From: Nitrospirota bacterium
GTDB taxonomy: Bacteria > Nitrospirota > JACRHJ01
Direction: 5' to 3'
DNA: 64,000 nucleotides
Assembly: GCA_049801375.1 (NCBI GenBank)
Contig: JBARKJ010000042.1
Span: forward strand, 28,703-92,702
Shown: one piece after another, positions 16,060 to 34,696 of the stretch
How the letters are laid out: the number at the start of each line of letters is the position of its first letter
Position numbering within the stretch: position 1 is the stretch's first letter
Program-made: the position numbers and the translations under genes
The notes under the pieces: model-generated
The model's database searches: none
What the model was told of the DNA's origin: nothing
What the model saw: only the letters and a program-made list of their open reading frames with translations

Positions 16060-16069
16060 TCGCCTTGCC

Positions 16070-18733: not shown

Positions 18734-18750
18734 CCTTGCACCTCATGATC

Positions 18751-19500: not shown

Positions 19501-19594
19501 CTTTAGTGCCTCCTTTTCGAAATTCAAAACACCACTTCCATCACCTCTGTGATAAATATCTTGTAACCTGAGATATCCGAGTAAATCCCTTAAG

Positions 19595-20629
19595 CTATTT
19601 CGGCTCTCCGTACATCTTGCACAGTTCGAGGTTGACTTCGAGCACATTGACAAACTTCTCGCCCACTATCCCGCCAAACGCCGCGGAGGCATTCTTCTGG
19701 AGTATAGTTTCAATCTCTTTTTTGACGCCGTCCGGGTTGCGTTTCCCGTCCGCCGCCCACTTGGAAGCTACCCGGTCGAGCTGAAGCTCTGCGTTCTGGA
19801 GCGATATGTGAGGGTCGAGCCCGGAGCCGGAAGCGGTCACCATGTCGCCGGGGACGTCCTGTAAATCTGCATCCGGATGGTCCTGCCGCCACATGTCGAA
19901 AAATATGGACTGGATGTCCGACCCTTCCTTGACCGGCTCGATGCCGGTCACACTCTTCCCGTCAGCTCCCGTGTGGGTAACAGCAGACGGGAACCTGCCG
20001 GGATTCTCCTTCGAGAAAGATTCGAAGAACACTACCGCCAGGTCTGCAGACTTAGGCTTCGGTGTGCCCGGGTTGTCCTTGACGAACTGCGCAACGATGG
20101 CCTGGTGCGCTTTCGCCCAAGTGTCCACGTACGCTCCGTTTTTCGGGTCAGCGCCAACCCAGGCCTGGGCGAGGGAGTTGTGCATGTCCGCCCATTGGGC
20201 GACTATATGCGGGCCGCCCTGGAATATGTCCTTCCGGAACCACTCTTCGATGTCAGGCGCGACAGGCTTTCCGGCCTTGGGGCCGCTTTTGTAGTTAACG
20301 ATAGGCCCGAGCATACGGGCGACCCGGTCGCGCAGGGCGTAGTTTGAAGGAGCCAGGGCCGACGAGGCCGAGGCCGAGGCATCATAAGACGCAGCGGACG
20401 GGCGCGGCTGGAAGTATTCGTCCTTTGTAAACGGCTGCGCAATAAGCTTTGAGCCGACCACTTTGCCGTCCGGCCCCTTCAGCATGCTTCCGTTGGCCTG
20501 GAACGGGAAAATGGTCTGCCCGACCGCCCACACCGCCAGCGGATAGATGCAGCAGCAGATGAACACTGCCAGCGCGAGAAGAAGAATACTTTTAGAAAGA
20601 TATTTTAACATACTATTTCTCCGGAACAT
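19595..20629 (-). CDS. kdpC: Potassium-transporting ATPase subunit KdpC, long form with an insertion of about 150 aa
   Basis: Start at MFRRNSMLKYL, 3 nt after the kdpB stop. An alternative ATG lies at 20611. N-terminal KdpC homology runs through YPLAVWAVGQTIFPFQANGSML...KLIAQPF...RPSAA. The C-terminal motif is VTASGSGLDPHIS...VNVLEVNLEL. The two are separated by an extra 150 aa or so that canonical KdpC lacks. Confidence 0.75.
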   Translation of the reverse strand: MFRRNSMLKYLSKSILLLALAVFICCCIYPLAVWAVGQTIFPFQANGSMLKGPDGKVVGSKLIAQPFTKDEYFQPRPSAASYDASASASSALAPSNYALRDRVARMLGPIVNYKSGPKAGKPVAPDIEEWFRKDIFQGGPHIVAQWADMHNSLAQAWVGADPKNGAYVDTWAKAHQAIVAQFVKDNPGTPKPKSADLAVVFFESFSKENPGRFPSAVTHTGADGKSVTGIEPVKEGSDIQSIFFDMWRQDHPDADLQDVPGDMVTASGSGLDPHISLQNAELQLDRVASKWAADGKRNPDGVKKEIETILQKNASAAFGGIVGEKFVNVLEVNLELCKMYGEPK

Positions 20630-20634
20630 TTTAG

Positions 20635-22776
20635 TTAGCTGACCAGATGCAGGCCCACCATGACCATGTCTATCACCTTTATGCCTATAAAGGGTACAAC
20701 CACGCCTCCAAGTCCCCATACCAGCAGGTTCCTCCTTAACAGCGCGTCCGCGCCGAGCGCCTGGTAGCGCACTCCTTTTAAGGCGACCGGGATGAGCATT
20801 GGGATGATGATCGCGTTGAAAATCACCGCGGACAGGATGGCGGAGGTCGGGGAGTGCAGGTTCATGACGTCGACCGCCTTCAGCCACGGCAGGGTCCCGG
20901 CAAAAAGCGCCGGTATGATCGCGAAGTATTTCGCCACATCGTTGGCTATCGAGAAGGTGGTCAGGGAGCCGCGGGTCATAAGAAGCTGCTTGCCGATTTC
21001 CACGACCTCGATCAGCTTGGTCGGGTCGCTGTCCAGGTCCACCATGTTGGCAGCCTCCTTGGCCGCCTGCGTTCCCGCGTTCATGGCAAGGGCCACGTCG
21101 GCCTGCGCCAGGGCGGGAGCATCATTGGTGCCGTCTCCCATCATGGCCACCAGCTTGCCCTCGGCTTGTTCCTTGCGTATGTAAGCGAGCTTGGTCTCAG
21201 GCGTGGCCTGGGCGATGAAGTCGTCCACCCCGGCCTTCTCGGCAATGGTAGCAGCCGTGAGCGGGTTATCCCCGGTTATCATGACGGTCTTCAGGCCCAT
21301 CTTCCTGAGCCGCTCGAACCGTGCACGCATATGCGGTTTAAGGATGTCTTCCAGCACTACGACACCCGCGACGCTGGACCCGTCGGCCACAACCAGGGGG
21401 GTTGCGCCCTTGGATGCGACGGAATTAACTAATTCGACGAGCCCTTCCGGTATGCTGCCATTATTGCCTTCCACGTACTTTATAATGGAATCTGAGGCCC
21501 CTTTGCGAACCTGCCGGCCGCCGGCAAGGTCGATGCCGCTCATGCGGGTCTGCGCAGTAAAGGGCACGAACTGCGCATCCTCCGGCACGCTTATACAGGT
21601 TTTGCTTTCCTTCTCAAAAAGCCTTACGATGCTCTTGCCCTCAGGCGTCAAGTCTGCTGCGGAAGCAAGCGCGGCAAGCTCTCCGACCTCTTCGGCTGAA
21701 AACTTCCCTACCGGCAGGAACTTCGTCGCGTGGCGGTCACCCATGGTAATAGTGCCCGTCTTGTCGAGCAACACGATATCGATATCGCCGGCGAGCTCCA
21801 CGGCCTTGCCGCTTTTGGCTATGATATTGGCCTGCAGAGCGCGGTCCATGCCCGCGATACCGATGGCCGCGAGCAATGCGCCGATGGTTGTGGGAATAAG
21901 GCATACCAGGAGCGCGATAAGAGTCGGTATGTCTGTGCCGAGGCTCTTCAACGGCTCCTGCAGGCCAAGGTAGCCCATCATATACTGCTCGGCGTTCGCG
22001 GCCATGGGCCAGAGCGGGATGACCACTATAAGGAACACGAGCGTAAAGGCCGACAGCACGAGCGTAAGGGCTATCTCGTTGGGTGTCCGCTGGCGGATAG
22101 CGCCTTCGACCAGGGCAATCATCTTGTCCAGGAATGATTCGCCGGCGCCTTGGGTAATGCGTACGACGATCCTGTCGGAAAGCACTACCGTGCCGCCCGT
22201 TACGGCGGAGCGATCGCCGCCCGCCTCGCGGATTACCGGCGCGGACTCGCCTGTTATCGCAGACTCGTTGACAGAGGCGACGCCTTCAATAATGTCTCCG
22301 TCGCCCGGGATGGTCTGCCCCGCCTCGACGACGACGACGTCTCCCTGCTTCAAAACCGCCGAAGATACCTCTTCTATTGCTCCGCCGTTCTTCCGGCGAA
22401 AAGCCACCGTGTCATGACGGGCCTGTCTCAGCGAGTCGGCCTGCGCCTTGCCGCGTGCCTCGGCCAGGGACGTGGCGAAATTAGCGAACAACACGGTCAG
22501 GAAAAGCCATGCGTCAAGCGTTATAAAATAGCTTACAGGCGCCTGGCTCGTCGAGCCGCTTACCGCGGCCTTCACTATATACAGCAAGGTCAGGATGGCG
22601 CCGATCTCCACGACGAACATAACAGGGTTATTCCACTGGAGGTCCGGCCTAAGCATGACGAAAGCGCGCTTCAGCGCCGACTTCGCCGTCCCGGCGTCCA
22701 GCAGCTTTATCTGCCGTGTGCGGCGCGTTGGCTGCGGCGGTCCTGAAAATAAATCAGCCGTATTTGGCTCAATCAT
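20635..22776 (-). CDS. kdpB: Potassium-transporting P-type ATPase subunit KdpB
   Basis: 713 aa. It has [14 protein letters not shown] and [19 protein letters not shown]. Confidence 0.9.
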
Positions 22777-22849
22777 ATCGCACTCCTTTTTGCACTTTTA
22801 TTTATTAAAAGGATCTTGCTATAAAATTCAAAAACATATCGACTCTCCA

Positions 22850-24679
22850 TTAGCCCCCGAACGGGATCGGGCCCAGATGTTCGGCTATGGGGCCCAGTAC
22901 TGCGACCGGCAGGAAGAGCAGAGCGCCGATTATGAGGGTCGTCCCCAGGATCAGGAACCCGAATGTAGGGCTGTCGTCGCGCAAGGTCCCCGGTCCGAAC
23001 GGTGCCTGCTTCTTTGAACCGAGGTATGCCGCCATTGCCAAGGGCGCGATAATCGGGAGAAAACGGCTGAATATTATAACCAGGCCCGTTGCGATGTCCC
23101 AGGGGATAGCTTCAGGCGAGGGAGTCAGGTTGTTATAGAAACCGTAAGTAACCCCCAGTCCGTCGAAGGCCGAGCCGTTATTGGCGGAGGCAGAAGAGAA
23201 CTGATAAAGCATTTGCGAGAAACCGTGCGCACCTGGGTTGCTCACGGCCTTTTGTCCCCAGTCCGTCGCGGCGAAAAGTCCCGTGGGAAGGAGTATCATC
23301 ATAGGGTGTACCAGCAGTGCGAGCACCGCCAGCTTCACCTCGCGGGCTCCGATCTTTTTGCCCAGATACTCGGGCGTCCTGCCCACCATCTGACCGGCCA
23401 GGAATATCGCGATTATTATATACAGCAGCATGTTTATCATACCGACGCCCTTGCCGCCGAAGATGTTATTAAGCCACATCCCCGTCATGGGCGCCAGTGC
23501 GGCAACCGGGTTCAGGCTGTCCGCCTCGGCGTTTACAGCCCCGCACGTCACGTCCGTCGTAACCGCCGCGTAGGTGGCGCCAGCCGAAGTGCCGAAGCGC
23601 ATCTCCTTGCCTTCGAGGTTGCCCGTATGCTGGTCCACCGGCAGGCCCGCGACCGCAGGCAGGGTTACCACGCGCTTTCCGCCTGGAGCCGTCTTGCTTG
23701 GGACGTAATAGGTCCTTGCCGCGGGGTGAGCCGTCAGGCCGGGGTTTGGCTTCAGGGTGTCGAAATAGACAGACCATACTATGGTAGCTGCCATCAGCGA
23801 CAGCATGACGGCAAAGATGACGTAGCCATGCCGGGGCCGCCCGAGCATCCGTCCGTACATCATCACGAGCGCGAACGGGAATATCATCATGGAGAGGGTG
23901 TTTACGAAGTTGGAGGCCGCGGTCGGGTTTTCATACGGGTGAGCCGAGTTCATGCCGTAGAACCCGCCCCCGTTGGTGCCGAGCATCTTTATCGACTCGA
24001 ATGCCGCGACCGGCCCGACCACGATCTTCTGCTTCTTGACCTCGCCTTTGTCCGTGGTCCCCATGGCCGCGGGTTCGAGCGTCGAGACTTCATGGTAGCT
24101 CTTGAAGGTCATCGGGCTGCCCTGGGCAACAAAAAACAGGGCGACGGCAAAAGCCGCCGGCACGAACATATATACCAGCACGCGCCACATGTCCACGAAG
24201 AAGTTACCGATAGTGGATGAGCCGCGTAAGGCCCGGATGATCGCCGTGAGAGCGCACAGGCCTATCGCGGCCGACACAAACAAATTAAATATGCCGAAGA
24301 ATATCTGGCTGAAGTTCGACAGGTGCTGGTCTCCGGAGTAGTGCTGGAGGTCTGTGTTCGTCATGAATGATGCTACGCTATGGAATATAGTGCTCGGTGC
24401 CAGTATAGTCTTCGCGTCGGGGTTAAGCGGCATCCATGGCTGGAGCGACAGCACTATATAGCCGAATACGAACATTAGCGTATTGAAAAGGAGCAACGAG
24501 CCAGCATACTGCTTCCAGTTCTGAGGCCCGCTGTTAAGGCGCCTCTCAAACCAGCCAAATACCGGAATGGGTCGGTACTTTCCGTCCATTATCCAGGCCA
24601 GATACCGGCTCAACGGGAACGCAATCAAGGTCGCCGCGACGAGAAGGCCAATAGGGATAAACCATGTTTGCATGAACAT
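22850..24679 (-). CDS. kdpA: Potassium-transporting ATPase subunit KdpA
   Basis: 609 aa polytopic membrane protein with the KdpA selectivity-filter-like repeats (NTDLQHYSG, TNGGGFYGMNSAHPYENP, ASANNGSAFDG). Confidence 0.9.
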   Translation of the reverse strand: MFMQTWFIPIGLLVAATLIAFPLSRYLAWIMDGKYRPIPVFGWFERRLNSGPQNWKQYAGSLLLFNTLMFVFGYIVLSLQPWMPLNPDAKTILAPSTIFHSVASFMTNTDLQHYSGDQHLSNFSQIFFGIFNLFVSAAIGLCALTAIIRALRGSSTIGNFFVDMWRVLVYMFVPAAFAVALFFVAQGSPMTFKSYHEVSTLEPAAMGTTDKGEVKKQKIVVGPVAAFESIKMLGTNGGGFYGMNSAHPYENPTAASNFVNTLSMMIFPFALVMMYGRMLGRPRHGYVIFAVMLSLMAATIVWSVYFDTLKPNPGLTAHPAARTYYVPSKTAPGGKRVVTLPAVAGLPVDQHTGNLEGKEMRFGTSAGATYAAVTTDVTCGAVNAEADSLNPVAALAPMTGMWLNNIFGGKGVGMINMLLYIIIAIFLAGQMVGRTPEYLGKKIGAREVKLAVLALLVHPMMILLPTGLFAATDWGQKAVSNPGAHGFSQMLYQFSSASANNGSAFDGLGVTYGFYNNLTPSPEAIPWDIATGLVIIFSRFLPIIAPLAMAAYLGSKKQAPFGPGTLRDDSPTFGFLILGTTLIIGALLFLPVAVLGPIAEHLGPIPFGG

Positions 24680-24701
24680 TTTGTTTTAAGCTCCTTTTTC
24701 T

Positions 24702-24782
24702 TTAGAACCACTCAGGCCGTATCAGGGCCGTGACCAGATAAACAAATATAAAGGCCGTTACGGCCACAGTCAGATAAATCAT
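24702..24782 (-). CDS. kdpF: KdpF, the small hydrophobic subunit of the Kdp complex
   Basis: Reverse-strand ORF ATG...TAA encoding MIYLTVAVTAFIFVYLVTALIRPEWF (26 aa). It ends 20 nt before the kdpA start. Size and hydrophobicity match KdpF. Confidence 0.6.
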   Translation of the reverse strand: MIYLTVAVTAFIFVYLVTALIRPEWF

Positions 24783-25260
24783 TAGCTTACCCCCTTTAAA
24801 TTTTCTCGCAGCCCACCAGGAACAGGGCACACAACCCCATCCCCACCAGGCCCAAAAGGAACATTGCCGGAAGCCAAAATAAAAGATTCATTGCAAATCC
24901 TCCGTTTTACGACAATAAAGTGCTGTTTTAATAATTAAAGAGTATAGCTTGCGGTATGTCAAATTGGTGTCAATAAACCAGGAAAGGATATCAAGATTTT
25001 ATCAATTTTTACTTTGTCTCCCGGAATTAGTTAAATTTGGATAGAGAATTAGGGTATCCACCCACCCCCGCATCATCTAACGCACCAACAAGGCTCTAAG
25101 TTGTTGATTTCGTGTAGCTGCAATAGGCTAACACTGCATGAATGTGTCATTATATGCAATTCGATTTGGCGTTATCCGGGTATGATGCATAGTAAAGGTA
25201 GTCTGAAGGGCTACGGTTTTACAAGCCGTAGGTTGTGGGTTCGATCTCCTCCCCCACCAT

Positions 25261-27816
25261 TTAATTCAACCCGTATTTTCCGGCAAGAAAATCAGCAGTG
25301 TACCGATTTACCAGTTCGTCGGAGTGCAACATGGCATCGAGCTGTCTGGTGTAAGATATTAGCCTGCCGAGCTGGTCGAGCAATTCCTGAACCCTGTCCT
25401 GGCTTATATTAGAGAGCCTGGCGACCAGAAGGTCTCCCTTTATGTTAAGGCCGAACCCGTGCTCCTTTAAAACTTCGGCTATGAAGTTCACCCTTCTTGA
25501 GCGCTTCACGATATCGGTGGCGCCTCCGACGAACCTGAAGTAAATGTGGTTATTCCGCGCTTTTTCGCTGCAGTAGCAGTCAATCATGTTGAAGTGATAG
25601 CCGAACCGCAGGTTCAAACTTACATATTCTCTCGAAACCACGGCCAGATTGTATCCTACGTAACTTTCCGCATCGTTCCTGATATCGGGCATACGGACCA
25701 TGCTTGAAAGAAAATCCCTGACATTCAGCGAGACTGTTTCCGAATGCCACACGCCGGGATAGGTCATACCCTTTAATATACTCGCAAGGGGCAGGGACGA
25801 CACCTGCTTGATTCCGACTTTATCTTTCTTGTCAAGAAGAGTGAGTCCGCCGCCGATATCGACCACCATCAATGCCGCCGGTATCGGAAGTTCAAGTCTG
25901 ACGGTTGCCTGACTATTTGTATTTACGCCTCTGTGCCTCGCTTCATCGATAAGCTCGGTAACCGATTTCTCGTGCATGAACCTCAGCACATCGTGGATAG
26001 TACGGCATCCTTCCACCGTAAAGTCCTCCATCAGCGGGTCAACAAGATGAAGGGGCGAGATATATCTCAGAATCTGCCTTTTCTTTCGATACTCGCCGAT
26101 GCTCTCCATGCCGAACACGCTTTCCTTGGAGGCCTTTACCAGCTCTTTGATAAACCCTTCATAAACTCTGGCATTGCCTTCGTTATCGATATGCAGGGTT
26201 ACGACCTGGCCTTCCTTTAGTATTTTTGTCGCATTGCCTGCATTGACCAGAGTCGGGATTTTAAATTCACGGCAGACTGAAGCCATGTGGCTGACAGGCG
26301 CGCCCGTATCCGTAATGATGGCGGAAATGTACGGCATGATTTTGACGAATTTCGAGGAGTCGTTCCTGGCGACCAGTACAGCCCCTCTGGGGATATTTTC
26401 GATCTCATCGTCACGGTTTATTATGAAAACCGTCCCTGCGCCCGTACCTCTCTGAACTACAGTTCCCTTGCCTTCCATTATGACAGCGGCTTCGGCGGGT
26501 ATGGAAATATCCTGGTCCCGTTCCCGGCCCTCCTCAAACCGAAGCGGCCTCGCCTGGAGAATATATATAACGCCATCTTTGTCTGCCGCCCATTCAATAT
26601 CCTGCAACCCTCCAAAATGCCTTTCTATTAAAACGGCCTGGGATGCAAGCTCGTATACCTGCTTGTCTGTCAGGCAAGGCGTATTAATTTTATCGGCAGG
26701 CGTGGCCATGACTTCTATTCCGCCGCCGCTTGTAAGCACTGCCATAGAATTCTTTCTGCCGGTCTTCCTATCCGTTATTTTAAAGGCCGAATTCTTATCA
26801 ACAGGTTTTTTTACAATGAACAGGTCTGGCTCCACCGCCCCATCTACCACCGAGACGCCGAGCCCCCACGAGGCGTTGATCATTATATCCGCCGCGTCAT
26901 CGGGACTGCCCGAAAATATCACGCCGCTTGAAACCGCATCTATCTGCAGGACGCACCCAACTGCCATCTTCATGCTTCCCGCGTCATGGCCCGTATTCTT
27001 TATATATGCGGCCGCCTCGCTGGAAAACAGACTTGCCATTACCTCCTTCCAGGCCGCTTCTACCGAATTTTTCTCGGCTGGCACGTTCAGGACGGTCTTG
27101 AACTGTCCGGCAAAAGTGAATTCGCCGTCTTCGTCTTCCGCGCTGCTTCTCACCGCGACAAAACATGGGGTCTTAAGACCCAATTTTAAAATTTCAAGCG
27201 CGTTGCCTATATCATCCGAGACTGCCGGAGGGATTTCCCCATTTATGACCTTCGCGCGCAGCCTGTCGAGCTGTTCATCCTCCAAAGAGCCCGCGCCGGC
27301 CAAGCCTTCTATTATCCGTCCGAGGTTGTTGTGCTCTATGAATATTTCGTAGGCGTGGGTCGTTATGGCGAAGGCGGGCGGGATGTTCAGTTTCAGATGG
27401 TTTTTCATTTCCGCGAGGTTCAGATTCTTGCCGCCTACCTCGTGCGCCATGTCCCAGCCTATATCATCGTATGATACGACAGCCTTCCCGAAAATGACCG
27501 CCGTGTCTTTTATAGCCGCATTTATCCGGGAGTCTATGCCGTCAAAAGTTTCCTGGAGACGTGAATACTTTTTCTGGGTGAGCGTGTCGAATTTTTGAAT
27601 TGACGTGCCTACGGCACTATTGAGTTTGCGATAGGCCGACTTGATGTAAATTATGTCGAACAGGTAGTCTCCGCCGAGTTTCTCACCCAGGTCGGTGATG
27701 ATATCGAGGGCCCTGTTGTTGCTGTCTATGATTTCTTTAAAAAGTTTGAACAGGTCCTGCCATGGAGTTTTCTTCCCGTTAAACTTTTCAGTTAAAAAAC
27801 TTTTAAGGTTAAACAT
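25261..27816 (-). CDS. PEP-utilizing enzyme family protein (PPDK_N ATP-grasp + phospho-His swivel domain, non-canonical C-terminal domain)
   Basis: 851 aa. The pyruvate phosphate dikinase/PEP synthase N-terminal ATP-binding region reads FVAVRSSAEDEDG. The mobile His domain reads VLVARNDSS...IITDTGAPVSHMASVCREFKIPTLV. The C-terminal 300 aa or so is not a recognisable PEP/pyruvate TIM barrel. Confidence 0.7.
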   Translation of the reverse strand: MFNLKSFLTEKFNGKKTPWQDLFKLFKEIIDSNNRALDIITDLGEKLGGDYLFDIIYIKSAYRKLNSAVGTSIQKFDTLTQKKYSRLQETFDGIDSRINAAIKDTAVIFGKAVVSYDDIGWDMAHEVGGKNLNLAEMKNHLKLNIPPAFAITTHAYEIFIEHNNLGRIIEGLAGAGSLEDEQLDRLRAKVINGEIPPAVSDDIGNALEILKLGLKTPCFVAVRSSAEDEDGEFTFAGQFKTVLNVPAEKNSVEAAWKEVMASLFSSEAAAYIKNTGHDAGSMKMAVGCVLQIDAVSSGVIFSGSPDDAADIMINASWGLGVSVVDGAVEPDLFIVKKPVDKNSAFKITDRKTGRKNSMAVLTSGGGIEVMATPADKINTPCLTDKQVYELASQAVLIERHFGGLQDIEWAADKDGVIYILQARPLRFEEGRERDQDISIPAEAAVIMEGKGTVVQRGTGAGTVFIINRDDEIENIPRGAVLVARNDSSKFVKIMPYISAIITDTGAPVSHMASVCREFKIPTLVNAGNATKILKEGQVVTLHIDNEGNARVYEGFIKELVKASKESVFGMESIGEYRKKRQILRYISPLHLVDPLMEDFTVEGCRTIHDVLRFMHEKSVTELIDEARHRGVNTNSQATVRLELPIPAALMVVDIGGGLTLLDKKDKVGIKQVSSLPLASILKGMTYPGVWHSETVSLNVRDFLSSMVRMPDIRNDAESYVGYNLAVVSREYVSLNLRFGYHFNMIDCYCSEKARNNHIYFRFVGGATDIVKRSRRVNFIAEVLKEHGFGLNIKGDLLVARLSNISQDRVQELLDQLGRLISYTRQLDAMLHSDELVNRYTADFLAGKYGLN

Positions 27817-27841: not shown

Positions 27842-29245
27842 TCATTTTACCACCTTACTGGTTGGAAGCTCTATAGAAAAGGTAGTGCCGGTCCCCAATC
27901 CGCTGTCAACCTTGATATTGCCGCTATGGTTTTTGATTATGCCGTAGCTGACGGATAAACCAAGGCCGGTGCCTCCCACGCCCTTGGTGCTGAAAAACGG
28001 GTCGAATACATGCGGTAGAAATTCCGGAGATATCCCCAGGCCCGTATCCGTTACGCAAATCTCGATCATGTCCTTTTTCTTATTATGTTTTGCCCCGACA
28101 TTCAGCCAGCCGCCCTCCGGCATAGCCTGCGATGCATTTACCATAAGGTTTACAAGGACCTGTTGTATCTGGTGCTGGTCGACCATGACGTGAGGAAGCT
28201 TGTTCCTTAGGTTCGTATGTACTTCTATCTTGTTTATATCCAGCATGTTCTGCACAAGGTTAAGGGAGGTGCGGATAACGTCTTTAATGTCGGCGTCACC
28301 GAAAACCGCCATCTTGGGCTTTGAGAAATCAAGCAGGTTCCTCACTATCTTTTTTATTCTGTCTGCCTCGGACTCGACCTTCTTCATAAACTCGATGCGG
28401 TCTTGCCGGCCCATGCTGTCATAGACCTCGGCATAAGTCTGGGCTATCATGGATATGTTGTTCAACGGGTTTGTTATCTCGTGCGCCACGCCCGCGGTCA
28501 GTATGCCCATCGAGGCCAGCTTTTTGGACTGAAGCAGTTCCTCTTCGTGGGTCTTCAATTCCTCTGACATGGAGTTTACCGCTTTTATGACGGAACCAAG
28601 CTCGTCGTTCGATTCCACTCCGTCGATCTTTTCGAAATTACCCGACGCTATGGAGTTGGCCAGGGCTTCTATTTTTCTGAGCGATATTAAAATTTTTTGC
28701 GAAACCAGATGGCTTACTGCTATCGCGGAAAGGATTATGCCTATTACGGAAAACAGCATAATCTGTTTGGTGCTGGAGAGGATTTTCCCTACCCTTGCCC
28801 GCTCCAAATGGGTCATCGATTCAGAGAATTCCCGAAGTTTTTTGCCCTCGGCCCTGAGCTTTGTCTCGCATTTCCGGTCCTTATTATCGCAAGTTATGAT
28901 GGACTCGCTGACCGCACGGTAGTAATCATCGATGTCTGACTTGATCGTAAGCAGGTTTTCGTTTCCAACCGCGCGGGAAATATCGTTACTCGCTGATTCC
29001 ACGGTACTCTTAGCGGTTTTTAACTTGTCCTGTATTTCGGTCAGCGCGGATTGGTCATTGTAGAGGAAGTAGTTCTTCTCTGAGAGCCGCATCTCCAGGA
29101 AGGAGGCGTTCAAGTCGTCGGCAATCTCCACGAAGCGAAGCTTCGTGAGCACGACATTCAGCGACTGAACGGCAAAAAAGCCTATCAGCATCATGAGGCC
29201 AACATTTACAATGTTGGACGTCACTATCTTCTGCTCTATTTTCAT
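27842..29245 (-). CDS. Membrane sensor histidine kinase (two TM segments, extracytoplasmic sensor, HisKA + HATPase_c)
   Basis: 467 aa. TM1 is VGLMMLIGFFAV. A periplasmic region of about 150 aa is followed by TM2 LFSVIGIILSAIAV. The H-box is VAHEITNPLNNI and the ATPase motifs are DTGLGI and GTGLGLSVSYGII. Confidence 0.75.
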   Translation of the reverse strand: MKIEQKIVTSNIVNVGLMMLIGFFAVQSLNVVLTKLRFVEIADDLNASFLEMRLSEKNYFLYNDQSALTEIQDKLKTAKSTVESASNDISRAVGNENLLTIKSDIDDYYRAVSESIITCDNKDRKCETKLRAEGKKLREFSESMTHLERARVGKILSSTKQIMLFSVIGIILSAIAVSHLVSQKILISLRKIEALANSIASGNFEKIDGVESNDELGSVIKAVNSMSEELKTHEEELLQSKKLASMGILTAGVAHEITNPLNNISMIAQTYAEVYDSMGRQDRIEFMKKVESEADRIKKIVRNLLDFSKPKMAVFGDADIKDVIRTSLNLVQNMLDINKIEVHTNLRNKLPHVMVDQHQIQQVLVNLMVNASQAMPEGGWLNVGAKHNKKKDMIEICVTDTGLGISPEFLPHVFDPFFSTKGVGGTGLGLSVSYGIIKNHSGNIKVDSGLGTGTTFSIELPTSKVVK

Positions 29246-29353
29246 ATATCCCTCAGGCGGCAGGCTATGTTAAAACCCGGCCTGGCTTCAGGAAAGCGGC
29301 CGTCATGCGATACGTGCCAACCACAGGATTAAACTTCCTTCCCGACTAAACCG

Positions 29354-30127
29354 TCAATGCGCACCCCCACCCTTCCCAAAAATGATCCCGACGCCGAAGC
29401 CTGCGGTTATCGCCGAGACGATGGCAAGTATGCCGTACAAAGCGCCCTGGTTTTTGGCCATATCCGCAAGCTTCTTCACAACACCCACCTGCTCCACGGT
29501 CACTTTGGACGAGGCTTGTTCAACTACTTTCTTGTCCTTTACCGCATAGACCGTGACCAGGTAATCTCCGGGGGGCGCCTGATAAGGCCAAGCGAACTTC
29601 ATGGAATACTTCTGCTTGCCGCCTTCGCTGGATATCTGGAAATTGGCGAAGGAATTAGCGAAAAGTTTCTTTGATTCCTTATACCTTATAAATTCGCCGA
29701 ACCACTTGTTCTTTTCCGCCTGGTCTTTTGCCGGCTCCATGTTCATGTGTCGTTCCAGGGCGGGATAGCCGAGCACACAGCGGTCCTGTTCGCATACGGC
29801 CAGCATCTCGTCGAGCTTTCTTGAACAGCGGACGAAATACAGGTTAGGCACCTTCTCGCATTTCAGCTCGCCGACATTCATCCACAGCGCTCCGGCTACC
29901 TTGCCTTTCATCTTGAGTGCCTGGTGGCATTCCGGGGAGGTCACGGCTATTATATAGTCATCCCCCGGGTCGGAGAGGCCTGAGACGCTGACCTCGCTCC
30001 CGGCGTAAAAGAAGCCTATGGATATATGGTCCTGGCTTGTTTCCGCGGTGAGAAACGCAGAAGCCCCCGTCGAGAACGCCCCTATAAATAAAACCGTCAA
30101 AGCAAGAGATAATATTTTAATTTTCAT
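29354..30127 (-). CDS. Secreted, C-terminally membrane-anchored protein of unknown function, translationally coupled to the TauE permease
   Basis: Trimmed to MKIKILSLALTVLFIGAFSTGASA, a signal peptide. The start codon lies 2 nt after the TauE stop. The C-terminal TM helix is ILAIVSAITAGFGVGIIFG. There are no recognisable catalytic motifs. Confidence 0.5.
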   Translation of the reverse strand: MKIKILSLALTVLFIGAFSTGASAFLTAETSQDHISIGFFYAGSEVSVSGLSDPGDDYIIAVTSPECHQALKMKGKVAGALWMNVGELKCEKVPNLYFVRCSRKLDEMLAVCEQDRCVLGYPALERHMNMEPAKDQAEKNKWFGEFIRYKESKKLFANSFANFQISSEGGKQKYSMKFAWPYQAPPGDYLVTVYAVKDKKVVEQASSKVTVEQVGVVKKLADMAKNQGALYGILAIVSAITAGFGVGIIFGKGGGAH

Positions 30128-30129
30128 TA

Positions 30130-31065
30130 TTAATGGCCTCCTCCCATACCAAGAAGCAGTGACGGCGTAAGCGTGAGGTCGAATATCATTTTTACCGTTA
30201 CGATGAGCGCGATCGCCGCGAGCAGTATCTTCAACTGGTCCGCCTTCAGCTTTCTGCCGAAGTAAGTCCCTACCTGAGCGCCAAGTGTCGAACCCAGAAG
30301 AAGCAGGACGGCTAAAACAAAGTCCACGGTGTGGTTTGTGTAGGCTTGCAGGAACGTGACCTCGATACACGTGAACAGTATCTGGAAAAGGCTCGTGCCG
30401 ACAACGACGTGCATGGGCATCCTTAAGATATAGACCATTACCGGGACCATCAGGAAGCCGCCGCCCACACCCATAACTGCAGCCAGGACGCCGACAATCC
30501 AGCCGAAGAAGATCGGAACGATCAAGGAATGCGTGACGCCCGACTTTTCGAACCGGCTCTGGAGCGGAAGACTGGCCAGGAATCTGACCATCCCCGATTC
30601 GCTGGCAGGCTTTGCCTTGCTTGCGTCCGCTGCGGCTGGCGCCTTTTTCTTTTTCATGCTGGAAAAGCTCTCATAGAACATATAGGTGCCGATTATGCCG
30701 AGCATTATCACATAAGTCATTTTGATTACGAAATCCGCGTTGCCCGTGGCCTTCAGTATCTTCATGGCCTGCACGCCGAAAAGGCCGCCGGTGAAGCCGC
30801 CCACCAGGAGGTACGCGCCCATTTTGAAATCAACGTTGCCGACCTTCCAGTGCGCGTAAGTCCCGGAAGACGAGGCCGCCACTATCTGGTTCGAGTCAGT
30901 CGCCGCCGCGACCGTGGAAGGTATCCCGAACATTATCAAGAGCGGGGTCATAAGCCATCCGCCGCCCACGCCAAATAGGCCGGAAAGAAGCCCGACGGCC
31001 AGTCCTAGACCGACCGGGACCAGTATGTTTATGCTTGTGAGTGCGACAGGCAGATACAGGTGCAT
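30130..31065 (-). CDS. TauE/SafE family sulfite/anion exporter-like permease (DUF81), two-repeat architecture
   Basis: 311 aa. It has 7-8 TM helices and internally duplicated GxGGG motifs (FGVGGGWLMTPLL and MGVGGGFLMVPVM), which are diagnostic of the TauE/SafE family. Confidence 0.75.
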   Translation of the reverse strand: MHLYLPVALTSINILVPVGLGLAVGLLSGLFGVGGGWLMTPLLIMFGIPSTVAAATDSNQIVAASSSGTYAHWKVGNVDFKMGAYLLVGGFTGGLFGVQAMKILKATGNADFVIKMTYVIMLGIIGTYMFYESFSSMKKKKAPAAADASKAKPASESGMVRFLASLPLQSRFEKSGVTHSLIVPIFFGWIVGVLAAVMGVGGGFLMVPVMVYILRMPMHVVVGTSLFQILFTCIEVTFLQAYTNHTVDFVLAVLLLLGSTLGAQVGTYFGRKLKADQLKILLAAIALIVTVKMIFDLTLTPSLLLGMGGGH

Positions 31066-31113
31066 GATTTTAATCCTCCATGTTTTTGAGGCCGGTCCCG
31101 AATCCGGGCCCGC

Positions 31114-31479
31114 CTATGCCGATTTTGCCGGCTTGGCGATTGTGACCACTTGCGTAGTCGCTGATTTCAAAAGTCTGTTCAGCTCTCTTGTCGAAAGCCT
31201 TTCATTTCCGGTCACGGTCGCGCCCAGCAGCACCGTCTCGACGTTCAACTGCTTCAAGGCCTCGCGTATCGCCGGGAGAAATTCTTTTTCAGAACTGATT
31301 ATTTCGGTCTTTATTCCGCCGTTGCCGTTACCGGGCGGCCTGGCGCTTGTCTCGGATTCGGACGCGGGAGACTGTATCAAAAGGATCGACAGGTCCTTGT
31401 CGAGAGTCCGGGCAAGCTCTATCGCGTAAGACAGCCCGTCATCGTTCTGGTAAGTTACAAATAGCAGGCTTCTCCTCAT
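31114..31479 (-). CDS. Small hypothetical protein (possible USP- or DsrE-like alpha/beta fold)
   Basis: About 121 aa from the ATG at 31479 (MRRSLLFVTYQNDDGLSYAIELARTL...). The RBS gggaggtgg lies directly upstream. It is the first gene downstream of a sigma54-type promoter. The fold assignment is tentative. Confidence 0.4.
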   Translation of the reverse strand: MRRSLLFVTYQNDDGLSYAIELARTLDKDLSILLIQSPASESETSARPPGNGNGGIKTEIISSEKEFLPAIREALKQLNVETVLLGATVTGNERLSTRELNRLLKSATTQVVTIAKPAKSA

Positions 31480-31511
31480 TCCCACCTCCCGGTTAAACTA
31501 ATCAGTTATGT

Positions 31512-31527
31512 AGCAATAAGGATGCCA
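31512..31527 (-). promoter_or_regulatory. Sigma54 (RpoN) -24/-12 promoter
   Basis: The minus-strand sequence is TGGCATccttaTTGCT. GG and GC are spaced exactly as in the consensus TGGCAC-N5-TTGCW. It lies about 30 nt upstream of the ATG at 31479 and immediately downstream of a gene for an NtrC-type sigma54 activator. Confidence 0.55.
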
Positions 31528-31610
31528 GAATGTAAATAATTGAAAAGACAGGGTTTTACTTAGAAGTACAAGAAGGGGTATTGTTGCAATATGAAACTAC
31601 TTTGAACGGC

Positions 31611-32942
31611 TTATTCGTTTTTCATTATCCTCCAAAGGCTCGTGCGGGATATCCCCAATGCCTCCGCAGCCTTTGTTTTATTACCTCCAAGGATATCCAG
31701 AACCCTTTCTACATAAGCCCGATTCAAAGCGTCGATGGTCTTTATCTCGCCAGGCTCGAATGTATCAATCTGAAACATCTTGAGACTCTGCGGCAGGCTC
31801 TCCGGGGTTATCTCATGGCTTCTTTCAAGGATAGTAGCGCGCTCGATAATATTTTCAAGCTCCCGTACATTGCCCGGATACGTGTAATCCTTAAGGATTT
31901 TCATCGCGGCCTTGTTTATCCCGGAAATTTTTTTGCGGGACTTCGGCAGGTGCTTTTCGAGCAAGAACCTGGCAAGAGGCTCTATATCGTCCTTCCGTTC
32001 GCGAAGCGGCGGGATGAATATTTCCATCACGTTCAGCCGGTAGTACAAGTCCTCGCGGAACCTGCCTTCGGCTATGACGGACTTCACGTTCCGGTTGGTT
32101 GCGGCTATGAACCGGACATCGACGCTTACCGTCTTAGTCCCGCCGACCCGGTAAAACTCGCCCTCCTCGATGACCTTGAGGAGCTTCGCCTGGAGGCTAG
32201 GCGCCATTTCGGCTATCTCGTCTAGAAAAAGAGTGCCGGTGTCCGCAATCTCGACCAGGCCCTGCTTTTTCTTTACCGCGCCCGTGAAAGCTCCCCGCTC
32301 GTGACCGAACAGCTCGCTCGCCAGCAGCTCCTCCGTAAGGGTGGCGCAGTTCAGAGACAGAAAAGGCGCATCCTGCCTCCGGCTCGTATAGTGGATTATC
32401 TTGGCAAGGAGGCTCTTGCCCACGCCGGACTCGCCCGTCAGGAAGATGTTGCATTCCGATTCCTTCAGGCTTTCGATGATCCTGAGGATCTCGTTCATGC
32501 TGGGGCTCTTGGCGATTATGGAAATCTTTCGCTGTTCGCTTGATATTGTGCGGACAGGCAGGCTCTGCTTGACAAGCCCCTTCCGCTCGAAGATCTTCCT
32601 GACCGTCGCAACCAGCTCGTCCAGCACGAAAGGCTTCGTAATATAATCCAGCGCCCCGAGCTTGATCGCCTCCAGCGCCGAATCAATACTTCCGTAGCCA
32701 GTTATTATAATTACATCGACCTCCGGGTGTTTCTCCTTCACTTTGGGCAGCAGGTCAAGACCCGTCATCCCCGGCATCTTTATGTCCGCGATGAGAAGGT
32801 CGAAATCACGCTCCTCGAGCGCCCTCCAGGCGTCCAGCCCGTTATATACGGACATCACCCTGTGGCCTTCCCTTTCCAGGGTGCTCTTCAAATGCTTCTG
32901 CGTTATCTCCTCGTCCTCGGCTATCAGGATGTCATACGGCAT
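31611..32942 (-). CDS. Sigma54-dependent Fis-family response regulator (NtrC-like: REC + AAA+ sigma54-interaction + HTH)
   Basis: 443 aa. The REC reads ILIAEDEE...IADIKMPGMTG. The AAA+ domain has GESGVGKS (Walker A) and the GAFTGA motif, which contacts sigma54. The C-terminal HTH is Fis-type. Confidence 0.85.
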   Translation of the reverse strand: MPYDILIAEDEEITQKHLKSTLEREGHRVMSVYNGLDAWRALEERDFDLLIADIKMPGMTGLDLLPKVKEKHPEVDVIIITGYGSIDSALEAIKLGALDYITKPFVLDELVATVRKIFERKGLVKQSLPVRTISSEQRKISIIAKSPSMNEILRIIESLKESECNIFLTGESGVGKSLLAKIIHYTSRRQDAPFLSLNCATLTEELLASELFGHERGAFTGAVKKKQGLVEIADTGTLFLDEIAEMAPSLQAKLLKVIEEGEFYRVGGTKTVSVDVRFIAATNRNVKSVIAEGRFREDLYYRLNVMEIFIPPLRERKDDIEPLARFLLEKHLPKSRKKISGINKAAMKILKDYTYPGNVRELENIIERATILERSHEITPESLPQSLKMFQIDTFEPGEIKTIDALNRAYVERVLDILGGNKTKAAEALGISRTSLWRIMKNE

Positions 32943-34548
32943 CTGTTCTTGTCTCCTGGATTTCCTTTGGCAACGTTATTTCAAACACTGCGCCGCCGTT
33001 TTTGTTGCCGGCCTTTATCTCCCCGCCGTGCTTTTTCACGATATTGAATACTATCGCTAGACCAAGCCCGGTGCCCTTGTCCTTGGTAGTAAAAAACGGC
33101 TCGAATATTTTTTCCAAGTGCTTCGGGGAAATCCCCGGACCAGTGTCTGATACCGTTATCCTCACGGCGTCCGTGGCGTCCTGTACCGTCACGGCCAGTT
33201 CGCCCATGCCCGCCATCGCATCCATCGCGTTTGCGAAAGTGTTTATGAATACCCGCTCCATCTGGCCGGGGTCCACCGGAATAACGCATGCGAGCGGGGC
33301 CTCAAGCCGGAATTTTATCCCTTCGCCGCTACGTGCGCTGGCATTCTTAGCCAGCCCGTACGCCTCCCGTATCAGAGGCACGATATTAGTCGGCGCAAGC
33401 CTCGGCTCCTGCCCCCGCGCGAACTCAAGGAGGTCCCCGATTATTCCCTTCACGCGCTCGGTCTGTCCTACTATGTCTCCGATTACCTCTTTTATCTTTG
33501 GCGGCGAATCGTCGTTAACCTGTTCCGCGAGCACCTGCGCCGACAGGTATATATTGTTCAGCGGATTATTAAGCTCGTGCGCCACGCCCGATGCGAGAGT
33601 ACCTATCGCGGCGAGTTTCTTCGTCTGCATCAGCTCTTCGGTTTTCTTCGCAAGTTCCCGTTCCCTTTGCGCGAGCTCTTTTTCCATCGTGTTAAACTTC
33701 TCAACCAGAACGTCTACCTCGTCCTTGTGCGTGGTATCCGAAGTGACCTGCGGCACCCTCGGATAGACCCCCTTACCGGTGTGCTCGACTACGTTTGTCA
33801 GCATTTCAAGCCTCAGCGTCACGCTGCTGAGTATCAAAAAAATCGACCCCAGGCCTATCAGAAGGAAGACCGGGAACACGATCAGCAGGGCGCGCTGCGA
33901 GAGCTTGATAGTGTGCTCGACCCTGTCCCTCGCCGCCCTGTCCAGTTCCTTGATGCTGTCTATGATATCTTCGCCTGTCTTCCTGAGCCCCTTGATGTCG
34001 CCGTCTACCGACTTAAGGCCCGCTACAAGGCTATCATCCGGCGGCAGACCGACGTTCTTCGTCAGGTATTCCGAGCTTTCGAGGGGGCGCTCCATGAAAG
34101 TCATCTCTATCAGGGGGATAGCCTTTCCGTATTTCGAATTTGCCGGTTCCCTCCGCTTTTGCATATCCCTGTCAAGCGAGGCGAGCGACGCTTCAATCCG
34201 GTCGAATTGGGCTATGTATTCCGTTGTCAGGGACTGAAGCCTTAAAAATTTCCCTCCCGCGTCCGTCCGCTTCGTCGCCGAGAGGGTATCCTGAATTTCC
34301 TTTAGATATCTGTGCACCTCGGCTGATTCCTCAGCCGATTTCTGCGGGCCGTACAGAAAGAAGTTTTTTTCATGCCTTCTTATCTGAAGGGAATTCGTGC
34401 GAAGGGTATCCGTCAGTTCGAGAAAGATAATCTCGTTTCGCATTTGAACGAAATTGACGTATTCGAAAATAATAAGGAGGGCGATAATGGACGCGCTGAT
34501 GAGGAATCCAAATGTTATTTTCTTTTTCAGGGACACGGAGCGCCTCAT
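32932..34548 (-). CDS. Membrane sensor histidine kinase (NtrB/AtoS-like), cognate to the NtrC-like regulator
   Basis: 538 aa with two TM segments and a periplasmic domain. The H-box is VAHELNNPLNNI and the ATPase motifs are DTGPGI and GTGLGLAIVFNIV. It overlaps the regulator gene by 11 nt. Confidence 0.8.
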   Translation of the reverse strand: MRRSVSLKKKITFGFLISASIIALLIIFEYVNFVQMRNEIIFLELTDTLRTNSLQIRRHEKNFFLYGPQKSAEESAEVHRYLKEIQDTLSATKRTDAGGKFLRLQSLTTEYIAQFDRIEASLASLDRDMQKRREPANSKYGKAIPLIEMTFMERPLESSEYLTKNVGLPPDDSLVAGLKSVDGDIKGLRKTGEDIIDSIKELDRAARDRVEHTIKLSQRALLIVFPVFLLIGLGSIFLILSSVTLRLEMLTNVVEHTGKGVYPRVPQVTSDTTHKDEVDVLVEKFNTMEKELAQRERELAKKTEELMQTKKLAAIGTLASGVAHELNNPLNNIYLSAQVLAEQVNDDSPPKIKEVIGDIVGQTERVKGIIGDLLEFARGQEPRLAPTNIVPLIREAYGLAKNASARSGEGIKFRLEAPLACVIPVDPGQMERVFINTFANAMDAMAGMGELAVTVQDATDAVRITVSDTGPGISPKHLEKIFEPFFTTKDKGTGLGLAIVFNIVKKHGGEIKAGNKNGGAVFEITLPKEIQETRTDAV

Positions 34549-34696
34549 TTTTCAATTTGAAACATTATAGGCTTTAGGGCATAGGAAGTCCAAAAATTTT
34601 TGCTATAGGTAAAATTATCTGATTCGGCGGATTTCAGGCTTGGATAAGATAAGAAATGATATTTTTCCAAGTAATCAATCTGGACAGGACTCCTTA

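Follow-up and report, generated by a model that had tools for sequence, protein, structure and literature searches.

A predicted sigma-54-dependent operon for a TauE/SafE permease and its Alph_Pro_TM partner in an uncultured Nitrospirota lineage

Introduction

The toluene sulfonate uptake permeases (TSUP) form a family that includes TauE. Here, we analyse a TauE/SafE locus on a stretch of 64,000 nucleotides from a Nitrospirota bacterium (contig JBARKJ010000042.1, positions 28,703 to 92,702; this whole stretch is called the window in the following), in which genes for a sensor histidine kinase, an NtrC-family activator, a small universal stress protein (USP)-like protein, a TauE/SafE permease and an Alph_Pro_TM protein follow each other on the minus strand, with a putative sigma-54 promoter between the activator gene and the small gene. 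The closest described systems come from Desulfovibrio vulgaris, in which nine sigma-54 operons encode TSUP- or PSE-family transporters (PMC4641369). A 'three-component general stress' system of this organism is composed of the Lon-type response regulator DVU3303, the kinase DVU3304 and the sigma-54 regulator DVU3305, the latter binding upstream of DVU3302-3298, of its own operon and of kdp (PMC3333781). DVU3302-3298 encode three hypothetical proteins, a TSUP-family permease and a USP behind a sigma-54 promoter (PMC3333781, PMC4641369). The DVU3305 sites upstream of DVU3302 are 17-bp palindromes of the form TGTTGCA-N3-TGCAACA at -146 and -227, the promoter CTTGGCACGGGGCTTGTTA lying at -56, and DVU3305 binds at -9 and -90 of its own operon, which is devoid of a sigma-54 promoter (PMC3333781, PMC4641369). 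The operons of the system rise at high pH, upon heat shock and in stationary phase, and an orthologue of DVU3305 was reported in the Nitrospirota species Thermodesulfovibrio yellowstonii (PMC3333781). DVU3299 is needed under chlorate stress (transposon fitness -2.3), and the loss of DVU3303-3305 is beneficial (PMC10102598).

We describe gene content, promoter, activator site and synteny of the window locus as they can be read from its own sequence and from those of its relatives. On balance, we regard it as probable that the locus is a two-component, sigma-54-dependent stress-type operon with a TauE-Alph_Pro_TM anion permease complex. An earlier note on the same DNA had described a self-contained, activator-dependent anion export unit. 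Upon re-checking, its sequence-level statements were all borne out. The range given in its title, 29354-32942, contains the genes from the activator through Alph_Pro_TM, whereas the sensor kinase named in the same title (34548-32932) falls outside of it.

Results

A probable sigma-54 promoter is conserved upstream of the orthologous operons

The putative sigma-54 promoter TGGCATccttaTTGCT (31512..31527, minus strand) is located in the gap of 131 nt between the stop codon of the activator gene (31611) and the ATG of the first gene (31479), which is preceded by a strong ribosome-binding site, GGGAGGTG, at 31490-31483; the placement between the activator gene and a small gene with a strong ribosome-binding site had been given correctly before. 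The sequence TGGCATCCTTATTGCT at 31527-31512 shows GG (31526-31525) and GC (31514-31513) at canonical spacing and starts 48 nt before the first-gene ATG. The match to the RpoN consensus spacing asserted by the earlier note is exact, and TGGCATccttaTTGCT is the sole zero-mismatch match to TGGCAYN5TTGCW in the 64 kb of the window. In a shuffle control for the exact consensus, 0.10 matches were expected and 9/100 shuffles contained at least one; as these shuffles also hold an exact match somewhere, the promoter match alone is suggestive and not decisive.

Related loci were collected from three sources, i.e. the contigs encoding homologues of the small protein and of Alph_Pro_TM, a scan of species-representative genomes with an Alph_Pro_TM alignment, which resulted in 55 loci, and a metagenome scan. 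An element of the form [T/A]GG[C/T]A[T/C]-N5-NTGC precedes the orthologous operon in plus orientation in 42 loci, the window included, its start being located 43-89 nt before the start codon of the first gene (the small USP-like gene in some loci, an additional canonical USP gene of 139 aa in the others). The intergenic DNA of these 42 loci is otherwise diverged, yet the promoter element recurs, and identities of the small USP among the promoter-bearing loci go down to about 25-35%. Calculated from its degeneracy, the relaxed pattern would be found by chance in a 100-nt interval on one strand in about one per 600-700 loci. The 42-locus set was chosen with this relaxed pattern, and base bias was therefore read at positions which the pattern leaves free, where T is found at +9 in 30/42, at +15 in 32/42 and at +17 in 36/42 loci. 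The relaxed pattern is absent from L015 and L034, for both of which upstream sequence is present, and the Desulfobacterota loci lack a canonical GG-N10-GC within 330 nt upstream of the USP gene, though similar dyads occur there.

Since the element precedes the orthologous operon in 42 Nitrospirota loci and is accompanied by a conserved upstream dyad, the promoter is very likely functional. Comparative evidence at the sequence level thereby gives strong backing to the claim that the small gene, TauE and the gene of the coupled secreted protein are under the control of a sigma-54 promoter which depends on the activator. Transcription is predicted to start near 31501, resulting in a 5' untranslated region of about 22 nt; upon folding, a 32-nt leader showed no significant structure.

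The predicted activator site lies at a fixed distance from the promoter

Upstream of the promoter, a putative activator sequence (31582..31607, minus strand) consists of a half-site GTTCA (31607-31603) and the 17-bp dyad aGTTTCAtatTGCAACa (31598-31582), with its centre at about -88 relative to the predicted transcription start. We built a position matrix from obvious dyads and scanned 31 loci. All of them (31/31) contain a 17-bp dyad with the consensus TGTTCAtattcTrAACA (GTTCA-N7-TGAAC) upstream of the promoter, its start being 65-72 nt away from the first base of the 16-mer (-71 for the window copy). In many loci, a second dyad occurs at -160 to -197. The layout of dyad and promoter is also visible in 11 loci which were added later. 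In loci with the activator gene immediately upstream, the site reads GTTCA-N6-GTTCA-N4-TGAAACA, the version of the window being ccGTTCAaagtaGTTTCAtatTGCAACa (31607-31582). The window dyad is identical to the D. vulgaris DVU3305 site TGTTGCATATCGCAACA at 14/17 positions. In Desulfobacterota loci (L052, L055, L059), TTTCA-N3/4-TGAAA dyads are found upstream of the USP gene.

Between activator site and promoter lies an A/T-rich element, TTTCAATTATTTA (31533..31545, minus strand), which resembles the core consensus WATCAANNNNTTR of integration host factor (IHF). A relaxed IHF pattern, WWTCAANNNNTTR, is present at -17 to -19 in 18/31 loci, with near matches in most others, and the columns of the element have an information content of 0.8 bits compared to about 0.3 in the flanks. 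Judging from this resemblance, IHF may bind at TTTCAATTATTTA.

A membrane-bound kinase is encoded together with the activator

The sensor histidine kinase HK1 (32932..34548, minus strand) and the NtrC-family response regulator (31611..32942, minus strand), the activator in the following, are encoded by genes overlapping by 11 nt. The activator is composed of Response_reg (REC; 1.8e-30), Sigma54_activat (6.1e-68) and HTH_8 (1.1e-7) domains in Pfam, and contains the GAFTGA motif at residues 217-222 and a Walker A motif at residues 170-177. It stays below every NCBIfam equivalog cutoff (TIGR01818, NtrC, 417.9 vs 558.6 bits), and by these profile scores it is not an equivalog of NtrC, AtoC or ZraR. 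HK1 has HisKA (2.1e-13) and HATPase_c (2.8e-26) domains in Pfam with the H-box histidine at His324, and its best equivalog model is AtoS (208.9 vs a cutoff of 646). Hydrophobic segments at residues 9-36 and 213-254 suggest two transmembrane helices with a periplasmic helical segment of ~180 aa in between.

NtrB is a cytoplasmic PAS kinase. The designation of the pair as NtrB/NtrC-like hence holds at the level of the families, whereas the activator scores below the NtrC cutoff and the kinase is predicted to be membrane-bound and AtoS/ZraS-like rather than NtrB. The periplasmic domain ascribed to the cognate kinase corresponds well to the ~180-aa segment between the two transmembrane helices, with the kinase cotranscribed with the activator. 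HK1 probably starts at GTG 34536 and not at ATG 34548, because its relatives begin with MSLK.

The operon of kinase and activator is preceded by a sigma-70-like promoter, TGGACT-17-TATAAT (34564..34592, minus strand), a consensus match only, which agrees at 10/12 consensus positions, is the best in a 10-kb scan and is kept in the close relatives L003 and L008. Its -10 hexamer is directly followed by the dyad GTTTCAaatTGAAAa (34550..34564, minus strand), a candidate autoregulatory site that resembles the upstream dyad GTTTCAtatTGCAAC of the operon and is conserved in L003 and L008 only. Scanning the window with the matrix for further activator sites resulted in two candidates only, both near or in HK1. 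The best matrix match of the window (17.4) is CGTTCAAATGCGAAACG at 34434-34450, inside the HK1 coding region. Both GTTTCAaatTGAAAa and CGTTCAAATGCGAAACG are kept only in the closest relatives, and with low confidence we suggest that the activator may regulate its own expression via these sites, as reported for DVU3305.

In many relatives, only 7-10 nt separate a TATAAT-like hexamer from the ATG of the kinase gene, suggesting that the kinase mRNAs there are leaderless or nearly so. Some Nitrospirota genomes (L063, 2894-5795 and 13125-16006; L044) encode two paralogous pairs of kinase and sigma-54 regulator, one beside each TauE cluster, with near-identical recognition helices, GISRTSLW[KR]ILK, suggesting cross-talk or a recent duplication.

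TauE and Alph_Pro_TM are conserved as a pair

The permease (30130..31065, minus strand; 311 aa) is a clear TauE/SafE protein of the TSUP family (PF01925, 165.9 bits vs a gathering score of 32.6, E 1.6e-48) with multiple hydrophobic segments, and it is 76-94% identical to its orthologues in the Nitrospirota loci. The following gene encodes an Alph_Pro_TM protein (29354..30127, minus strand; 257 aa; PF09608, 166.1 bits vs 24.5, E 1.4e-48), the ATG of which (30127) is located only 2 nt past the TauE stop codon, and which, judged from the sequence, is translationally coupled to TauE. The earlier description of TauE followed by a signal-peptide protein with this 2-nt distance is thus correct; PF09608 identifies the latter, which has an N-terminal hydrophobic leader. 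Because the protein scores far below the equivalog cutoff of TIGR02186 (58.9 vs 255.25 bits), it belongs to a separate, non-alphaproteobacterial branch.

Alph_Pro_TM is predicted to have a signal peptide, two periplasmic immunoglobulin (Ig)-like beta-sandwich domains with a helical insert, a C-terminal transmembrane anchor and a short tail ending in GGGAH. Its structure matches are generic sandwiches of the Ig and carbohydrate-binding module type, without a substrate-binding-protein fold among them. Of the 55 genome loci, nearly all of those in which upstream sequence is present have the TauE gene next to the Alph_Pro_TM gene. The C-terminal tails of the two proteins, surveyed in L002-L062, read ...GGH in this TauE clade and ...GG(A/S)H in Alph_Pro_TM in almost every locus including distant phyla, and they are encoded in the window at 30130-30141 (TauE) and 29354-29368 (Alph_Pro_TM). 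The GGH ending is missing from paralogous TauE proteins that have no Alph_Pro_TM partner. From the topology and the basic residues after the anchor, both tails should be cytoplasmic.

A search of the literature library used here under PF09608, TIGR02186 or Alph_Pro_TM returned nothing, the sole mention of such a protein that was found being in a study of Dissulfuribacter thermophilus, in which TauE and a 'co-occurring transmembrane protein' are up by 1.6-1.8 log2 units in thiosulfate disproportionation (PMC13490349); this partner is taken as Alph_Pro_TM by its annotation alone. The neighbours of the locus in the window include no taurine, sulfoacetate or other sulfonate-pathway genes, and the export of sulfite or sulfoacetate by TauE, as proposed before, would be a guess derived from the family name, the TSUP family containing importers as well as exporters.

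The small protein is probably a divergent universal stress protein

The operon begins with a gene (31114..31479, minus strand) for a protein of 121 aa which is predicted to be cytoplasmic and for which neither Pfam nor NCBIfam contains a match. Only ten homologues were found, five of which have 157-163 aa, and in the alignment with homologues of 157-170 aa the protein of the window lineage shows an internal deletion of ~37 aa. The full-length homologue P0006 (54% identity) exceeds the cutoff of Pfam Usp (25.2 vs 24 bits), the others scoring 14-20 bits. The AlphaFold model of the small protein (pLDDT 73, moderate) has the USP 4wny as its top PDB match (E 2.7e-4), with further USPs at ranks 20, 29 and 38 and HUP/Rossmann-type proteins as the remaining matches. 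The ATP-binding motif G-x2-G-x9-G[ST] of the UspFG/MJ0577 class is absent in all 10 family members, while the neighbouring tandem USP, used as a control, contains two copies. The small protein is therefore probably a divergent, shortened USP, and since its family has no G-x2-G-x9-G[ST] motif it probably does not bind ATP.

A DsrE fold was considered as well and rejected, as Pfam and NCBIfam gave no match and the top 50 fold matches contain no DsrE. From the former designation as USP/DsrE-like, the USP part stands, supported by P0006 above the Pfam Usp threshold and by the top fold match, and the DsrE part is dropped.

The operon probably extends into a second kinase gene and a dikinase gene

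Downstream of Alph_Pro_TM, the same strand encodes a second sensor kinase, HK2 (27842..29245), with a weak CHASE3-like periplasmic domain, HAMP, HisKA and HATPase_c in Pfam, and a phosphoenolpyruvate (PEP)-synthase-like dikinase of 851 aa (25261..27816) with PPDK_N and PEP-utilizers domains. A terminator scan detected none within the operon and none before HK2, and the spacer of 108 nt between Alph_Pro_TM and HK2 folds no better than shuffled sequences (z -0.05), for which reason, together with the negative consensus scan, an attenuator or terminator in this spacer was rejected. A sigma-54-like sequence before HK2, TGGCACgtatcGCAT (about 29321-29306), was also discarded; its GC is 2 nt too close to the GG, and the GG is not conserved in L003. 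Given the lack of a terminator, the unstructured spacer and the wrong spacing of TGGCACgtatcGCAT, read-through into HK2 and the dikinase gene is likely, and HK2 is probably cotranscribed with the operon.

The view of the locus as a self-contained unit has to be abandoned, because HK2 and the dikinase are conserved partners of TauE-Alph_Pro_TM across several phyla. Relatives also carry extra USP, MshEN/DUF202 and REC genes which the window lacks. The full Nitrospirota version comprises 12 tightly spaced genes on one strand (L065, 8540-19387) in the order HK1, sigma-54 regulator, USP-like protein (170 aa), TauE and Alph_Pro_TM, followed by a tandem USP, a USP, two MshEN/DUF202 proteins, HK2, REC and dikinase. 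Compared to L065, the window (29246-31479) misses two USP genes, two MshEN/DUF202 genes of the cyclic di-GMP (c-di-GMP)-binding type and the stand-alone REC gene, and thus represents a reduced version of the 12-gene cluster.

In Desulfobacterota, Acidobacteriota, Gemmatimonadales and Myxococcales, the dikinase gene directly follows Alph_Pro_TM. A metagenome search with the dikinase C-terminal domain alone resulted in 80 loci, in which this dikinase subfamily adjoins REC and HK2 wherever upstream sequence is present and is adjacent or linked to TauE-Alph_Pro_TM, the order sometimes being permuted (L103). Loci from outside the Nitrospirota (L119-L146) often have two or three tandem dikinase paralogues after REC and kinase.

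The dikinase has an N-terminal extension, PPDK_N (2.7e-75) and the PEP-utilizers swivel domain (2.2e-17) with its histidine context kept; the PEP-utilizers_C TIM barrel was not found in the Pfam search. The protein stays below the equivalog cutoffs (PRK06464, 319 vs 598; TIGR01418, 297 vs 740), and its homology to PDB entries and to PEP synthase ends near residue 569. Its C-terminal domain (25261-26148, 295 aa) has no sequence match in Pfam or PDB. These ~290 residues are conserved, with the motifs HD[IV]LRFxHE, DxGGG, YFRFxGG and TRQLD, and occur only behind PPDK_N and swivel domains; all database homologues of the domain are annotated generically as pyruvate, water dikinase.

Surroundings of the locus

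The closest relatives in the scan of species-representative genomes are uncultured Nitrospirota/Thermodesulfovibrionales genomes. Upstream of the locus lie unrelated genes and a tRNA-Asp gene, the only Rfam hit above threshold over 24-37 kb. Downstream, the same strand encodes a small kdpF-like open reading frame, kdpF, kdpABC and kdpDE (15367-24890). The kdp genes have a sigma-70-like promoter of their own, TTGACA-N17-TATACT, and neither a sigma-54 promoter nor a sequence resembling the activator site was detected upstream of them.

Directly after the dikinase stop codon, a tRNA-Val-like fragment (25197-25259, plus strand) scores 23.2 bits with the Rfam tRNA model (gathering score 29; model positions 6-65) and ARAGORN does not call it. 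Synteny breaks at this fragment, kdp coming next here and a NiFe hydrogenase in L003-L005, and the fragment may be the remnant of an integration or rearrangement site.

Discussion

The data support a model according to which HK1 senses a periplasmic or envelope signal and phosphorylates the NtrC-family activator. The activator would bind the dyad about 71 nt upstream of the -24/-12 promoter, the IHF-like element in between possibly bending the DNA, and would use ATP to open the complex of the sigma-54 holoenzyme at TGGCAT-N5-TTGCT, with transcription starting near 31501. The resulting transcript would encode the USP-like cytoplasmic protein, TauE and its obligate partner Alph_Pro_TM, with probable read-through into HK2 and the dikinase. 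Most likely, a single membrane complex of TauE and Alph_Pro_TM moves a small anion, possibly a sulfur or other oxyanion, and the USP-like protein may modulate this complex from the cytoplasmic side. The dependence on the activator in vivo, the formation of the complex, anion transport and any role of the dikinase are inferences. As to the direction of transport, export is slightly favoured by analogy with the chlorate phenotype in D. vulgaris.

Several observations weigh against this model. The organism belongs to an uncultured Nitrospirota lineage in which the circuit is known from sequence alone, and rpoN is missing from the window, which encodes no RpoN box. The activator site of the window scores weakly on the family matrix, 5.3 compared to 17-28 in most other loci. 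We found neither a solved structure nor a characterised close homologue of TauE or Alph_Pro_TM; the profile search with Alph_Pro_TM against PDB sequences gave nothing meaningful, and TauE has no PDB relatives. The D. vulgaris permease belongs to a paralogous TauE clade, without the Alph_Pro_TM partner and without the GGH tail. With ~37 residues lost and the ATP-binding motif missing, a regulatory role of the small USP is speculative. Moreover, the conservation of dikinase, REC and kinase genes points to the possibility that the system does more than transport.

TauE-Alph_Pro_TM might instead import sulfate, thiosulfate, sulfonate or another anion for respiration or assimilation, being induced when the kinase detects the external substrate. 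Kinases with a periplasmic sensor domain often induce uptake systems, and the periplasmic Ig-like partner could present the substrate. In addition, the TSUP family includes proposed uptake systems, such as those for toluene-sulfonate and the Corynebacterium CysZ-type system for sulfate (PMC5840216). However, only generic beta-sandwiches and no substrate-binding-protein fold were found, the USP-rich cluster fits a general-stress regulon and not a catabolic one, and the protection against chlorate by the related D. vulgaris permease is a better fit to efflux. We consider import rather unlikely.

Next, HK2, REC, the dikinase and the MshEN c-di-GMP receptors could make up a signalling or phosphotransfer system for which TauE-Alph_Pro_TM mainly provides the membrane arm, with any transport being secondary or coupled to phosphorylation by the dikinase. 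In favour of this, the association of the dikinase with HK2 and REC, and its position adjacent or linked to TauE-Alph_Pro_TM, extend over Nitrospirota, Desulfobacterota, Acidobacteriota, Gemmatimonadales and Myxococcales and persist in loci with a permuted gene order. In the dikinase, the histidine context of the swivel domain and the C-terminal domain are conserved, and both membrane proteins end in a conserved cytoplasmic ...GGH. Yet the evidence is purely associative, and the permease can stand without REC and MshEN, because the lineage of the window has lost them and keeps TauE-Alph_Pro_TM. To our knowledge, biochemistry offers no precedent of a transporter or its cargo being acted on by a PEP-synthase-like enzyme. 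Altogether, a signalling system of this kind is improbable.

Going further, TauE, Alph_Pro_TM, the dikinase, REC and the CHASE3/HAMP kinase, along with two MshEN proteins and several USPs in the full versions, could constitute a single undescribed membrane system of at least five phyla in which ATP-driven phosphohistidine chemistry is coupled to a permease. The phosphate would then go to the GGH tails or to the anion being transported, and the sigma-54 circuit would be no more than the on-switch. The link between dikinase, REC and HK2 and the shared GGH tails are associations only, seen at the level of gene neighbourhoods and sequences, and we regard such a system as quite improbable. Finally, it is extremely improbable that the promoter match is fortuitous, and that transcription of the three genes starts at a sigma-70 promoter or continues from the activator gene. 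In favour of this, 9% of shuffled windows hold an exact match, the activator stop codon lies only 131 nt upstream, and no terminator was detected; against it, the element, its spacing, its start-codon distance, the dyad at fixed distance and the IHF-like element are conserved in 42 loci, including loci in which the activator gene is not adjacent, and the 131-nt gap contains no good sigma-70 match.

In the favoured reading as a sigma-54-dependent stress-type operon with an anion permease complex, the locus provides a concrete layout of promoter, activator site and bend for an uncultured Nitrospirota lineage of the Thermodesulfovibrionia type, and thereby a testable model. With it, the stress regulon of the DVU3305 type, mapped by experiment in Desulfovibrio, reaches a further phylum and a different permease. 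As a hypothesis, two widespread unstudied families, Alph_Pro_TM and the dikinase with its new C-terminal domain, are tied to one conserved neighbourhood. If the substrate is a sulfur or other oxyanion, this would bear on how anaerobic sulfur-cycling bacteria handle toxic intermediates. The regulatory logic is that of the textbook and does not overturn the current understanding.

Comparison with known systems

Like PpsA and the rifampicin phosphotransferase-type dikinases, the window dikinase has an ATP-grasp (PPDK_N) and a swivel domain in the order of PpsA. In contrast to the PpsA-type enzymes, it is devoid of the PEP/pyruvate-binding TIM barrel and has the C-terminal domain of ~290 aa and the N-terminal extension instead. 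We found no literature joining TauE and PEP synthase. With the TIGR02186/PF09608 proteins, the window protein shares the strong Pfam match and the pairing with TauE, which is reflected in the SEED-style name 'transmembrane protein co-occurring with sulfite exporter TauE/SafE'.

The TauE/SafE exporters for sulfite or sulfoacetate of Cupriavidus necator and Neptuniibacter resemble the window permease in being multi-pass PF01925 proteins of ~250-310 aa (TCDB 2.A.102), for all of which a small anion is presumed as the substrate. They differ in that their genes are located within sulfonate-degradation clusters, which are not found in the window. We know of no report of an Alph_Pro_TM partner or of sigma-54 control for these exporters. 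The TauE/TSUP family is too diverse for a substrate to be transferred from one member to another (PMC5840216).

The promoter region has the parts known from classical NtrC, AtoC and ZraR promoters, i.e. an activator dyad, an IHF-like element and GG-N10-GC, and is served by an activator of REC, AAA+ and HTH_8 domains, whereas the arrangement in the window is compact, with the dyad centre near -88 and the IHF-like element at about -44 to -32.

The differences to the DVU3303-3305 system lie mainly in its partners. The window has no Lon-type regulator, which adjoins HK1 in L002, L044, L058 and L063; its permease belongs to another TauE clade with an Alph_Pro_TM partner and a GGH tail; and for D. 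vulgaris there is no description of dikinase, HK2 and MshEN partners. The composition of DVU3302-3298 matches the second cluster of L002 and L063 (small hypothetical proteins, a TauE of 345-362 aa and a USP) and not that of the window. Upstream of the second TauE-USP cluster of L002 (2270-2500), DVU3305-type dyads, cgTTGCAAtttGCAAAt, occur together with the element TGGCATgaaaaTTGAT, the non-canonical -12 of which (GA) is reminiscent of the DVU3302 promoter of D. vulgaris, which has TTGT at -12. The DVU3305 sites, TGTTGCA-N3-TGCAACA, differ from the Nitrospirota consensus, TGTTCA-N5-TrAACA, and among the D. vulgaris activators the DNA-binding segment of the window regulator is closest to DVU3334, with 19/42 identical residues over this 42-aa segment only.

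The likeness concerns the regulatory design. In both systems, an operon for USP-type proteins and a TSUP-family permease lies next to the genes for a membrane kinase and a sigma-54 regulator, by which it is driven or, in the window, predicted to be driven. Its -24/-12 promoter precedes the first ATG by about 50-56 nt, and the activator sites are 17-bp TGT-N11-ACA palindromes, the window site agreeing with one of the DVU3302 sites at 14/17 positions; the self-binding at the kinase-regulator operon also has a candidate counterpart in the window. Two-component, sigma-54 control of a TSUP permease is hence already known from Desulfovibrio, and new at the window locus are the different permease clade and its periplasmic partner.

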